DNA of 64,000 bases. Source: Promethearchaeota archaeon (GTDB lineage: Archaea > Asgardarchaeota > Heimdallarchaeia > Hodarchaeales > Hodarchaeaceae). The notes under the pieces are model-generated. The model saw only the letters and a list, made by a program, of their open reading frames with translations, was not told the origin of the DNA and made no database searches. Each line of letters begins with the position of its first letter. Positions within the stretch are counted from its first letter, which is position 1. The position numbers and the translations under genes were made by a program. Of this stretch, positions 35,442 through 48,123 are shown one piece after another. The stretch spans positions 128,001-192,000 of the forward strand of contig JBHLMN010000010.1 of the NCBI GenBank assembly GCA_048938105.1, written 5' to 3'.

Positions 35442-35716
35442 GGATTATTTTCCCTGGACGAGCACAACATCGAAAAATTTGATGTTAAAATATTGCAATT
35501 TCATTGGGGTAACTAATTTACCATTACCCGACAATATAATAGATGTTTGCTGAAAATAAGAGAATTAATTGTAGATATGTTAATATAAAAATAGAGAAGT
35601 TAAGAGTTTTTAAGAGTATTTTAAAGGGAAAATCATCCCGTACTACATTTGTGTACAAATTCTTTAGATAATAATTAATGTTTGAATAGGGGAGAGGAAA
35701 ATAAGAGAGTGGGAAT

Positions 35717-36235
35717 ATGAATAGTGACAACTGGATACTAAAAATTAATTTAGTAGGAGTCCCTCATAGCTTAGCAATGGATTTAACTCATTTGGTTAAT
35801 CCAAATAGAAACTCTATTTGCTCAGTGCTTGATACAATTGGTGTAGATGTAAATACTGAGAATATACGTGTGGATAATGAAATCGTAAGGATGATCTTTT
35901 GTAATGTAAATGCTGACAATAAATATAGAGAACTACGTCAAGCATATTACCAAGGGGCTTTTGCAGCGGTATTTTTCTTCTTGAAGGATGATTTGGAGGC
36001 ACTAAATAAAATAAGAGATTTACATACAGAATTCACATTAAGTTCGTCTGAGGATTCCCAAAGAGCGTTAGTAGGAATAGTGGACGAAACAAATGGAAAC
36101 AAAAAATCTCAAGCAGAAGATTTAGCCAAAATATTAGGAATACCTTATTATGAGATGAAAAACACTGATAACATTGGCTTTAATGAAATGATCACAGAAT
36201 TAGTAAGCATTCATATAGATTCTTTAAAAAGTTGA
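35717..36235 (+). CDS. Degenerate Rab-like small GTPase
   Basis: LKINLVG, DTIGVD, YRELRQAYYQGA, IPYYE retain the Rab pattern; G1, G3, G4 and G5 residues replaced. Confidence 0.75.
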   Translation: MNSDNWILKINLVGVPHSLAMDLTHLVNPNRNSICSVLDTIGVDVNTENIRVDNEIVRMIFCNVNADNKYRELRQAYYQGAFAAVFFFLKDDLEALNKIRDLHTEFTLSSSEDSQRALVGIVDETNGNKKSQAEDLAKILGIPYYEMKNTDNIGFNEMITELVSIHIDSLKS

Positions 36236-45049: not shown

Positions 45050-45334
45050 TTGACTGAAAAAGTAAGCTTTTATACCGATAAAAAATCTTGGGAAAGGTTT
45101 AAAGACCAGGTATATCGTTCCAGTGGAACAATGAGAAATTTAAGCAGTGAACTGAACAAGATTATTGACGATAATACTCTAATCAACTTAGAAGTCAATT
45201 TAAAGAGATTAATTTCATCGAAAGAAAACCAATCATTCTCTTTAGAAGAAATCAAGCAAGACCGACCGACCGTTCCTATACCTGCAGAAGAAATAATTCG
45301 TGAGATGAGAAACTCCCATGTTAATCTATCTTGA
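45050..45334 (+). CDS. Putative VapB-type antitoxin
   Basis: Small ORF overlapping a PIN gene; RHH-like N-terminus; AEEIIREMR C-terminus. Confidence 0.7.
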   Translation: MTEKVSFYTDKKSWERFKDQVYRSSGTMRNLSSELNKIIDDNTLINLEVNLKRLISSKENQSFSLEEIKQDRPTVPIPAEEIIREMRNSHVNLS

Positions 45335-45776
45335 CAGCTCTATGATTGTGAAGAGATATATCCAAGAAGCAGGAACATCTTTTGCAGACTTTCTCTATGA
45401 TCAAATAGGGCAAGGATATCTAACATTAGCATTTAATCTCCTGAATATTGTTGAAGTATTAGGCGTGTTTGATCAATATTTAAGAAGAAATTGGATTGAT
45501 CAAGACACCCTCAACAAAATAATGTCAAAATTCATTGATGAAACATTAAGATTACTGAGAATCAATCAGTCGGAAATATTACCTACTTTAGTTTCAATAC
45601 AAATGAATGCATGGACGTTTGCGTTACAAAACCGATTATATATTGTAGATGCGGTCCAAGTAACAAATAGTAAACGATTTGAAGCGAACTATTTTAGTTC
45701 GGGAGATAAATACGTTACTAATGTTGCAAACGAGCTTGGATTTGAGGTTTATACCCAGAAGAGGAAAATACATTAA
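45318..45776 (+). CDS. vapC: VapC/PIN toxin
   Basis: IYLDSS..VKRY..E, E, DAVQV, SGD acidic residues. Confidence 0.85.
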   Translation: MLIYLDSSMIVKRYIQEAGTSFADFLYDQIGQGYLTLAFNLLNIVEVLGVFDQYLRRNWIDQDTLNKIMSKFIDETLRLLRINQSEILPTLVSIQMNAWTFALQNRLYIVDAVQVTNSKRFEANYFSSGDKYVTNVANELGFEVYTQKRKIH

Positions 45777-45918: not shown

Positions 45919-47202
45919 TTACGCTCCTACTGCTGAATAATCCATCTCACTAAAACTTTTAGCTTTTCTGGGCCGGAGTCTATATGTTAAAAATCCTGCA
46001 AATGCTAGAGTTGAAATCATTAGCAAGAGTTCTCCCAATAAAAGCCAATTTAATCCTTGAAAGATTGTCGTAAGAGCAGGAATGTCTTGTGATAAACGAT
46101 TTCTCAGTGTTGTATTGATATTTATCCCAGTTAGATACTCTAGTCCAGTTGGAGTTACCCCAATAAGAACCCCCACAATAGCAATGATTCTAGCAATTCT
46201 AGAAGGTCGTGAAATACTCGGGATGTTAATTTGAGAAAGTACTTCGTGCTCTAATGTTCTGAATTCAATCTTTCCATCGATTTTACCCGTTATCAATGGT
46301 GTGATAATGAAACTCAGCTTTTGATTGGGCTTTGTAAGTTGTGCGACTCTAGAAGGGGGACTAACTAAACAACCAGGGCACAATGGAACTACCTGGATTA
46401 CATCTATAGCAAACTCAAGTTGTTCTAGCTTTTGGGTTTTTCTTGTGCCAGTCACAAGATAAGATTTCCCTTTTTCTTCTTGTATCGCAAAATGAGAGAG
46501 CTCAACAGTTAAATCAAAATTTTTATACGGAATCATTCGATCAAAGTATGAAATTCCAGTATAGATCGTTCTTTTATCTGGTCCTTTCTTTTTTAGTATC
46601 ATTTTCGCCTCTTGGCTAATTGGTTCTGCTGCTAGGTCTTCAGAAGTTAATATTACACTTTTAGTGCCAAAATCAAGTCCTATAGTTGGTAAATAGTTTG
46701 TTGTGAAACCTTTTCCTACAAATGCCTCTTTTAATGAAGTTTTCCCTGTCCCCAATTCACCTAGAAGGATTATCTTTGCTATGATTGACTCTCCTTCTTC
46801 TTCTGGAGCTATACTCATACCCCTTCCTATATCGATAGCGAGCTGCTTTAAGATAGACTCAGGATGAATTGAATCACTAGCTTGGGGAGATTTGAACCAG
46901 GTATCTCGAGCAGAAGTTTTTATAAATTCGATATCACTGGCTAATTTTTCCTGCCATTCAGTTATTAATTCAAAAACTTCGTTATCACTCACTTTTCCCT
47001 CTAAATCAGCTTTAGTTCCAATTAAATAAATCTTAATAAGTTGTAATTGGTCTGAAAACTCTATTATCTTCCTAAACCATTCAGTTATACTCTTAAATGT
47101 TTCTGGTTGTGATAGATCAAATAAAATTAGTACAATATGGGCTTCACGATAAAAACTGGCACGGTGGGTACTTTCAACGGTTGGAGGGTCAAGGAACATC
47201 AT
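45919..47202 (-). CDS. Circularly permuted Rab-like GTPase + beta-sandwich + two C-terminal TMs
   Basis: Motif order FLDPP(G3)-TKAD(G4)-TSAR(G5)-GELGTGKT(G1)-PTIG(G2); possible ATA start at 47214. Confidence 0.75.
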   Translation of the reverse strand: MMFLDPPTVESTHRASFYREAHIVLILFDLSQPETFKSITEWFRKIIEFSDQLQLIKIYLIGTKADLEGKVSDNEVFELITEWQEKLASDIEFIKTSARDTWFKSPQASDSIHPESILKQLAIDIGRGMSIAPEEEGESIIAKIILLGELGTGKTSLKEAFVGKGFTTNYLPTIGLDFGTKSVILTSEDLAAEPISQEAKMILKKKGPDKRTIYTGISYFDRMIPYKNFDLTVELSHFAIQEEKGKSYLVTGTRKTQKLEQLEFAIDVIQVVPLCPGCLVSPPSRVAQLTKPNQKLSFIITPLITGKIDGKIEFRTLEHEVLSQINIPSISRPSRIARIIAIVGVLIGVTPTGLEYLTGININTTLRNRLSQDIPALTTIFQGLNWLLLGELLLMISTLAFAGFLTYRLRPRKAKSFSEMDYSAVGA

Positions 47203-47487
47203 TTTAATTTCTATTGAAATTGCCTCCTAGGTCACTCAGTTGATTTTCTTATTGTACATTATTATTTTATAACACTTGTCTGTTAAGTCTAATAATTCAC
47301 CAAATCCCCAGATTCCATGATTAGTCAATTGAATGGCTAGGGTTATCTCAACATTACCCTTATAAGGCATGGAAAATGGTTGATACCTGGCCTGCGCCTA
47401 CTTTCGGGAGAGAAGCTAAATCACAGAGATCGATATTGAGTAGATCACTCATTAGAATTAGCAGCCCTTTTTTTAATTAAATTTCAT

Positions 47488-48123
47488 TTAATCTTTTTCC
47501 CTACGCCGACGAAAAATAAGGATAATTATATTAAAAATGCCAACACTAAAAAGAATTTCTAAAAAACTCACAGCAATAGTTTGTTTCTCTGTGTAGTAAG
47601 ACACATTACTCCAGTGGGGAGGCCAATAAGTGGTTCCTAAGTAAATACCTGCATCAATTAAAATCTGGTCTGGATCGAACTCAAACCACTCTCCATCGGC
47701 TTCTAAGCTGATTTTTACTAGAGATTGACACTCAGAACAGCTGAAATTATACGACCAGTACTTCTGAGGAGAGAGGATTAACGATAAATCCATGTTTAAA
47801 GTTAAATTTTCGGATTTCAAAAAACTCGGTACACCCCGTTCACCTATTTCCTCTATAGTAAGAATTAACTGATTTAGCGAGTGAATAGTCGTATCTAAAT
47901 TAGCCACCCCTAATGTAATATGAGTTAAAGTAATTACATCCCAGCAAGTAGTAGTTATGTTATCTCTAGAGAATTTACCAGAACACCAAGAAGTCTTTGA
48001 ATCGAGAATTTGGACGTCGAATGGGCACTGTTGATTGGTTGCATATATCATATTACTTTGAATAAGAAGAGTCCCCAAAAAAAAGATAGAAAGGATTCCA
48101 CTAGTTGTAAATTGCAACTTCAT
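47488..48123 (-). CDS. Surface protein with signal peptide and C-terminal TM/basic tail
   Basis: N-terminal hydrophobic stretch; C-terminal TM plus RRRREKD. Confidence 0.7.
   Translation of the reverse strand: MKLQFTTSGILSIFFLGTLLIQSNMIYATNQQCPFDVQILDSKTSWCSGKFSRDNITTTCWDVITLTHITLGVANLDTTIHSLNQLILTIEEIGERGVPSFLKSENLTLNMDLSLILSPQKYWSYNFSCSECQSLVKISLEADGEWFEFDPDQILIDAGIYLGTTYWPPHWSNVSYYTEKQTIAVSFLEILFSVGIFNIIILIFRRRREKD

Follow-up and report, generated by a model that had tools for sequence, protein, structure and literature searches.

The DNA considered here (the window, 64,000 nucleotides in total) belongs to a Promethearchaeota archaeon of the order Hodarchaeales (GenBank assembly GCA_048938105.1, contig JBHLMN010000010.1, positions 128,001 to 192,000 of the forward strand). 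It contains an open reading frame (ORF) at 45919..47202 of the minus strand, which runs from an ATG at 47202 to a TAA stop at 45919-45921 and encodes a protein of 427 amino acids. This protein, whose parts are all given below with minus-strand coordinates, combines a small GTPase domain (G-domain) with circularly permuted motifs, a linker, a β-sandwich and a predicted helical membrane hairpin.

The first half of the G-domain, residues 1-128 (46819..47202), corresponds to β3-α2-β4-α3-β5-α4-β6-α5, as delineated by its match to positions 64-145 of the Pfam Ras profile, by a structural model and by alignment with Rabs. It opens with a degenerate G3 motif at the start of switch II, LDPPT (residues 4-8, 47179..47193), where the Asp is kept while the glycine of DxxG and the catalytic Gln are lost. 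In this place, family members have WDLGGQERF. G4 follows as TKAD (residues 63-66, 47005..47016), in which Thr replaces the Asn of NKxD and in which K64 and D66 are invariant in the family. G5 reads TSAR (residues 96-99, 46906..46917; S97 invariant). A new connection from α5 to β1, residues 129-141 (46780..46818), is acidic in sequence, with APEEEGES at residues 132-139, and was modelled with a predicted local distance difference test score (pLDDT) of about 71-75. Such a linker is present in all family members. The second half, residues 142-181 (46660..46779), would then supply β1, the P-loop, α1, switch I and β2, according to its match to Roc/Ras positions 1-42 and to the model, in which strands are found at 143-148 and 177-180. 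It carries the G1 P-loop GELGTGKTS (residues 148-156, 46735-46761; G148, G153 and T155 invariant) and the G2 motif PTIGLDF (residues 172-178, about 46669-46689) with Thr173. Of the small GTPase motif set, G1, Thr173 of G2 and TSAR of G5 are thus present, whereas TKAD in G4 and DPPT in G3 deviate.

Read along the sequence, the motif order is G3-G4-G5-linker-G1-G2, with one copy of each. Profile searches give the same picture. Pfam Ras (PF00071) matches the protein with 73.8 bits, for a cut-off of 21.6, in two stretches that appear in reversed order: residues 13-100 match positions 64-145 of the Ras profile and residues 143-184 match Roc/Ras positions 1-42. With a profile built in the canonical order, positions 48-171 are found at residues 4-134 and positions 1-47 only afterwards, at residues 148-194. 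The NCBIfam small_GTP model scores 24.8, below its threshold of 42.5. In the whole genome (5.85 Mb), the canonical-order profile detected 54 other small GTPase ORFs, all full-length and canonical, and this single permuted one. The ORF is therefore a true circular permutation opened between β2 and β3.

A model of residues 1-200 was built with AlphaFold2 using 28 family sequences. It shows one compact G-domain (pLDDT 82, predicted template modelling score (pTM) 0.82) with elements in the order β3, α2, β4, α3, β5, α4, β6, α5, β1, α1, β2. The best Foldseek matches are Rab3D, Rab8a and other Rabs, with about 117-125 aligned columns; the alignments are short because this aligner follows the sequence order. 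VIA-align was run against 48,161 chains. Rabs (Rab3D, Rab8a, Rab9, Rab6 and others) were matched over model residues 1 to about 130, facing chain residues about 57-175, with Z scores of 9-9.8 and root-mean-square deviations (rmsd) of 2.0-2.6. Permuted GTPases of the YRG type aligned on model residues about 5-190, thus on both halves: the pre-60S chain 8pv1_Cd (Z 10.6, 145 residues aligned), the mitoribosomal chain 8csp_9 (Z 9.9, 155 residues), YqeH (3h2y, Z 9.5), YlqF (1puj, Z 9.0) and YloQ (1t9h, Z 8.3). Because these alignments span both halves, the two halves are placed in the model as in one G-domain.

The same arrangement is found well beyond the window. Relatives were collected by an exhaustive HMMER search and by a profile search. 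At least 28 protein clusters show the same order, with G3 near residue 10, G4 near 68, G5 near 100, G1 near 147 and G2 near 172, and all family members start at strand β3. A PxFPGC motif follows in all clusters except two, and in most of the clusters with this motif F.ITPL and hydrophobic helices come next. Many members are fully canonical in their motifs (WDLGGQERF, NKxD, TSAK, GxxGVGKT, TxGVDF). Across the 28 sequences, Lys and Asp of G4, Ser of G5, and two Gly and the Thr of the P-loop are invariant. The named sources are metagenome-assembled genomes (MAGs) of Lokiarchaeota, Promethearchaeota and Hodarchaeales; all named relatives are from Asgard MAGs and are annotated only as GTP-binding or hypothetical proteins. 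A profile spanning the junction, from G4 to G2, gave colinear matches in 73 of the 399 genomes of the phylum, and all but two of the matches listed are without internal stop. They concern the family-level groups f20 (70 of 135 genomes) and f19 (3 of 14); in the genus of the window, only the window genome itself was found (1 of 21), its ORF matching positions 1-120 of 121 without stops (E = 5.7e-35). Dozens of independent genomes show this order again, so it is not a product of chance. Short forms, of about 220-290 residues and with a single C-terminal hydrophobic helix, make up most of the genomic copies. The long forms, including the window copy, bear the sandwich-plus-hairpin module.

In the window copy, this module is reached through an inter-domain linker, residues 182-210 (46573..46659), which has pLDDT values below 60 around residues 201-206 and 15% identity to the orthologues. 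It is short here, whereas in many relatives it extends to hundreds of Pro/Glu/Lys-rich residues. The β-sandwich itself, residues 211-333 (46204..46572), was modelled with pLDDT 94-98 and contains the motifs YFDRMIPYKNF, PLCPGCLVSP (PLCPGC near residue 273) and FIITPL (near residue 298); the module aligns with at least 50 relatives. Structures matching the sandwich come from MG, Ig-like, ZU5 and transglutaminase-barrel domains, with Z scores of 8-9.9, and the resemblance to MG, Ig-like and ZU5 domains, as far as the model goes, is at the level of a common fold only. No significant Pfam or NCBIfam family was found for the sandwich or the C-terminal module. The helical membrane hairpin, residues 334-408 (45979..46203), is about 82% identical to the orthologues. 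Two long helices, 335-358 and 386-408, are predicted and are separated by short ones; hydropathy peaks lie at 334-358 and 383-407. According to sequence and hydropathy, the protein ends with a basic tail, LRPRKAKSFSEMDYSAVGA, which with the stop codon occupies 45919..45978. The C-terminus (...SEMDYSAVGA) contains no Cys and neither a CaaX nor a CC prenylation motif. A full-length model, built from a 66-row alignment, reached pLDDT 86 and pTM 0.51; in this model, the low pTM reflects two rigid parts joined flexibly.

Coiled-coil or proline-rich heads, with no GTPase domain, can also precede the sandwich module. The window genome has a GTPase-less paralogue of 514 residues (L002:670-2214; G000 contig C28:26489-27121 region), in which a long acidic, proline-rich head precedes a sandwich with PxxxGC and F.ITPL motifs and membrane helices. 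Matches to the C-terminal module alone, in open frames of about 460-570 residues, were observed in 20 of the 20 other genomes of the genus searched. The window copy thus shows that its C-terminal module is common to proteins devoid of a GTPase domain.

Taken together, we favour, with a probability of about 0.85, the following view: circularly permuted small GTPases of the Rab-like kind form a conserved family in Asgard archaea, and this gene is one of its members, its product being tethered to the membrane through the sandwich and the hairpin. The preliminary description of this DNA had already proposed a Rab-like domain, permuted at the β2-β3 hairpin with each element present once. The reversed two-piece Pfam match, the motif reading and the model bear this out, and the Rab affinity is upheld by the Rab-type G2 motif PTIGLDF and by the best structural matches. 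Its other observations, a G3 without the DxxG glycine and the catalytic Gln and a β-sandwich followed by two transmembrane segments, agree with the LDPPT sequence for the former and with both the full-length model and hydropathy for the latter. Two of the checks it named, a structure prediction and a search of other Asgard genomes for the same reversed order, gave the compact domain and the recurrence described above.

The following mode of action may be envisaged. The chain would run from β3 through G3, G4, G5 and α5, then through the 13-residue acidic linker to β1, the P-loop, α1, switch I and β2, and both halves would pack within one chain to give a single, ordinary G-domain. The chain would leave this domain at the end of β2, beside the switches, and continue through the short linker to the β-sandwich and to the two-helix hairpin. 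Given two membrane helices, a basic tail and a requirement for guanosine triphosphate (GTP) from the cytosol, both ends of the protein, with the G-domain and the sandwich, would be cytoplasmic. The protein would thus bind nucleotide while held permanently at the membrane, with no lipid modification required. Because the tether leaves from β2 and not from α5, it may be imagined that the switch face is turned toward the membrane side and that movements of switch I and β2 could pull on the tether. In such a speculative scheme, the position of the tether would link the membrane hairpin mechanically to the switch and interswitch regions and their nucleotide state. If true, this would be a membrane-coupled switch of a kind not described for small GTPases.

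Several observations weigh against the view of the gene as a permuted, membrane-tethered GTPase. The structural test consists of a prediction and of aligners that depend on sequence order. Within the genus, the 20 other species lack the gene. Its G3 is degenerate, and the representative of one cluster of orthologues, P0002, has Arg for the P-loop Lys. The statements on nucleotide binding, hydrolysis, membrane topology and expression are inferences. Finally, a quick maximum-likelihood (ML) tree of the G-domains, re-permuted to the canonical order, splits the permuted proteins into four well-supported subclades inside the Asgard Rab-like radiation instead of uniting them in a single one. The approximately unbiased (AU) test does not reject a single permuted clade (p = 0.425), and the C-terminal module is common to all four subclades, which favours a single origin of the archaeal permuted proteins. 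In this tree, the window protein groups with P0002, P0005-8 and P0013 (98% support in the Shimodaira-Hasegawa-like approximate likelihood ratio test, SH-aLRT), and its nearest relatives of named source are proteins of Hodarchaeales MAGs. No DNA match to the gene was detected in the five same-genus genomes checked. It is thus an accessory gene.

Even if the family as a whole is as described, the window copy might have left the nucleotide cycle behind. In that case, it would be a pseudo-GTPase, which would keep the fold and the anchor as a scaffold, GTP binding and sensing being gone. Its DPPT in G3, with neither Gly nor Gln, and the Asn-to-Thr change in G4 point in this direction. So does the pace of divergence: identity to the orthologues, all with an intact frame, is 56-59% in the G-domain, whereas the sandwich reaches 80.5% and the membrane part about 82%, and the lower value fits a relaxed or changed constraint on the G-domain. 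The orthologue P0002 (65% identical, same architecture) reads GVGRTS in its P-loop, and within the subclade the decay of G3 appears stepwise, from WDPAGA (P0013), WDLAGD (P0008), WDSPGD (P0007) and WDLPSS (P0005) to LDPPT in the window and VDPMR in P0002. With its degenerate G3 and the P-loop Arg of P0002, this subclade may be losing its dependence on nucleotides. On the other side, the P-loop GxxxxGKT, the G2 Thr, Lys and Asp of G4 and Ser of G5 are intact in the window copy, the invariant G4, G5 and P-loop residues listed above hold family-wide, and P0180, a member of the same cluster as P0002, has GVGKTS, NKAD and TSAK. Complete independence from nucleotide is therefore considered unlikely, while deserving some weight. 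Since G1, the Thr of G2, G4 (TKAD) and G5 are kept, the window copy is likely to bind guanine nucleotides. Since its G3 lacks the glycine and the glutamine, intrinsic hydrolysis and the sensing of the γ-phosphate by switch II are probably weak or lost. Relatives whose motifs are all canonical probably act as true switches. As judged from these sequences, the window copy is a long form that has diverged: its G3 has decayed, its G4 reads TKAD and its inter-domain linker is unusually short.

The topology itself is already known. In cpRAS, defined as G3-G4-G5-G1-G2 (Elias and Novotny 2008, Biol Direct 3:21, PMC2430557), the break falls between strands 2 and 3, and this domain was presented as the counter-example to the claim that the YRG order G4-G5-G1-G2-G3 alone can exist (PMC2430557). 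According to a survey of 2007-08, a break in the β2-β3 turn should block folding; cpRAS was the sole counter-example and was judged specific to eukaryotes (PMC2430557). The preliminary description had assumed that cpRAS begins at G4 and that the window protein has a different permutation point. Both statements are wrong, since by the published definition cpRAS begins at G3 and the break in the window protein is that of cpRAS, between β2 and β3. The two also share the new α5-β1 loop, and in both the domain is placed N-terminally within a larger protein. In other respects they differ. cpRAS is eukaryotic, of the RAS family, and has a TIE motif in G2, whereas the window protein is archaeal with a Rab-type TIGLDF and has relatives with WDxxGQERF. 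cpRAS proteins of 840-3900 residues contain VWA/Sec23-trunk or COG2373/macroglobulin-like regions and no membrane anchor. Unlike them, the archaeal family has an unclassified β-sandwich with a membrane hairpin or, where the form is short, a single tail anchor, and no VWA match was obtained for the window ORF in the Pfam search.

One permutation event might nevertheless account for both, cpRAS being then a rare eukaryotic oddity inherited from an Asgard permuted GTPase. The identical motif order and break point (PMC2430557) would be explained at once, authors from the same group now consider CPRas as potentially present in the last eukaryotic common ancestor (PMC13393502), and one cpRAS protein lies amid macroglobulin-like domains, while the window sandwich has generic MG-like matches. 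However, these matches are only at the common-fold level, and no protein of cpRAS-VWA length (840-970 residues) was seen among the best 150 matches of the exhaustive HMMER search. Moreover, the TIE motif and RAS family membership of cpRAS contrast with TIGxDF, WDxxGQERF and the best structural matches to Rabs in the archaeal family, which in the tree sits among Asgard Rab-like paralogues, and the domain partners differ. Such a common descent appears quite improbable. Independent origins of the archaeal family and of cpRAS, the latter judged by its published motifs and classification, are more likely.

The other known permuted GTPases are more remote. Proteins of the YRG group (YlqF-RbgA, YqeH, YjeQ-RsgA) resemble the window protein in having α5 joined to β1, and they provide the best colinear structural matches (Z 8.3-10.6, 115-155 residues). 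These matches cover G4 to G2 only. Indeed, the YRG order is G4-G5-G1-G2-G3, with a break after β3 and before α2, whereas G3 is N-terminal in the window protein. In addition, the YRG proteins are ribosome-assembly factors of the TRAFAC class with RNA-binding domains, outside the Ras superfamily, and their identity to the window protein is 11-20%. Canonical Rab-like GTPases of Asgard archaea and eukaryotes are closer in fold, motifs and sequence, with an rmsd of about 2 Å over β3-α5. They are soluble proteins of about 180-210 residues in G1 to G5 order, in eukaryotes with a C-terminal prenyl anchor after α5. The window protein departs from canonical Rabs in its swapped order and in its anchor, a protein module placed after β2.

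What is new is thus the Asgard setting, the Rab-like nature of the domain and the built-in membrane anchor. In literature searches, whose coverage was incomplete, no archaeal case of a permuted small GTPase was met and only the cpRAS paper (PMC2430557) matched; the family is apparently an undescribed archaeal variant of the cpRAS-type permutation. It would represent a second family with a β2-β3 break, present in dozens of Asgard genomes, most of its members being canonical in their catalytic motifs. Its probably independent origin suggests that this topology is robust and was selected more than once. It also shows one way for Asgard Rab-like switches to reach membranes without prenylation, by a tail anchor or by a sandwich-plus-hairpin module, and is relevant to the way in which membrane-identity GTPases may have functioned before the lipid anchors of eukaryotes.

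It may also be asked whether the two halves meet within one chain. They could complement each other between chains, so that only domain-swapped dimers or oligomers, held together at the membrane, would contain a G-domain. Permutations born from tandem duplication can go through swapped intermediates, and the β-sandwich and hairpin module could gather chains. Against this, the monomer model is confident (pTM 0.82, as given above), the α5-β1 linker of all members is of similar length and partly conserved, as for closure within a single chain, and the YRG and cpRAS precedents are intramolecular (PMC2430557). An obligatory exchange between chains is therefore regarded as very improbable.

The sequence upstream of the gene bears on the origin of the reversed order. 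The upstream boundary, 47212..47229, was drawn from the sequence, its translation and the alignment with P0002. An in-frame TAG lies at 47227-47229, a GGAGG sequence at 47223-47227 and an in-frame ATA at 47212-47214, 8 nucleotides past GGAGG. The annotated ATG is 20 nucleotides from GGAGG and 4 codons 3′ of the ATA, which aligns with the start Met of P0002 (MEVKMILVDP in P0002, IEIKMMFLDP in the window). Considering the spacing to GGAGG and the Met of the orthologue, the ATA may be the true start, four codons before the ATG. Alternatively, a change from ATG to ATA may have moved initiation four codons downstream. In the 285 nucleotides that separate the ORF from the upstream gene, stops occur in all frames. 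At 0.35-0.37, the gene has the same guanine-plus-cytosine content as the DNA around it; a recent transfer was considered on this basis and rejected.

From the TAG and from GGAGG 8 nucleotides ahead of the ATA, both confirmed in sequence and translation, the preliminary description had argued that no G1/G2 half is missing upstream. This holds. A G1-G2 profile, run with all filters off on the six-frame translations of 47203-47700, gave negative scores only, for 73.8 bits with the protein's own G1-G2. At 12 family loci from 12 other genomes, the 450 nucleotides upstream contained no G1/G2-like sequence (at most 1.1 bits), and an in-frame stop was found about 0-30 codons before β3. P0002 and its cluster mates P0180 and P0181 begin at the same place as the window ORF and, according to gene calls, lie behind unrelated genes that end 137-190 nucleotides upstream of their start. 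A longer gene call for P0181 adds 18 N-terminal residues without a P-loop. No orthologue with a complete upstream G1/G2 was thus found in the P0002 cluster or at the 12 loci. Searches for related loci in genome contigs and metagenome contigs found no orthologue DNA.

These results bear on the idea of a decayed tandem, in which the C-terminal half of a first canonical GTPase and the N-terminal half of a second one would stand side by side without cooperating, in a pseudogene or chimera. Eukaryotic tandem-Rab proteins do match the query colinearly, with an offset of about 75 residues, and adjacent canonical GTPase genes of the same genus give read-through matches with internal stops (G009, G013, G002). 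With no G1/G2 remnant in the window or at the 12 loci and stops right before β3, orthologues that start alike, no second G3-G5 past β2 in family members and a gap of only about 30 residues from β2 to the sandwich, an architecture kept in 73 genomes with invariant nucleotide-binding residues, and a model that is a confident single domain, such a decay is hardly credible and was rejected.

Head-to-tail canonical small GTPase genes were observed at G009:C1:2090483-2091463, G013:C133:120645-121205 and G002:C23:48365-48925. The apparent permuted match in G009 corresponds to two such neighbours read through stops. These pairs show only that the raw material for duplication, fusion and trimming exists. 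An origin of the permutation by tandem duplication followed by trimming is plausible.

The genomic neighbourhood of the gene is not conserved. In an all-against-all BLAST comparison of the ORFs of 12 loci, only the permuted gene itself was linked, without conserved neighbours, and no synteny was found with the contigs of orthologues or with same-genus genomes. Homologues of the genes flanking it between 42500 and 50500 of the window, with up to 86% nucleotide identity, are scattered over contigs and positions in genomes of the same genus. This region is a variable one. Upstream, the gene at 47488-48123 (minus strand) encodes a protein of 211 residues in which a hydrophobic segment is N-terminal and a membrane helix C-terminal; this protein matched no Pfam family and is not a neighbour of the orthologues. 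On the other side, at 45050-45776 (plus strand), an ORF of 94 codons overlaps one of 152 codons that has a weak PIN-domain match (E = 0.039). From their sequences, these two ORFs look like a toxin-antitoxin pair of the VapBC type. They converge on the 3′ end of the GTPase gene, and a copy with 78% DNA identity is found elsewhere in G009. Farther away in the window, at about 35700-36235 (plus strand), another ORF matches the small GTPase profile only partially, over positions 32-114.

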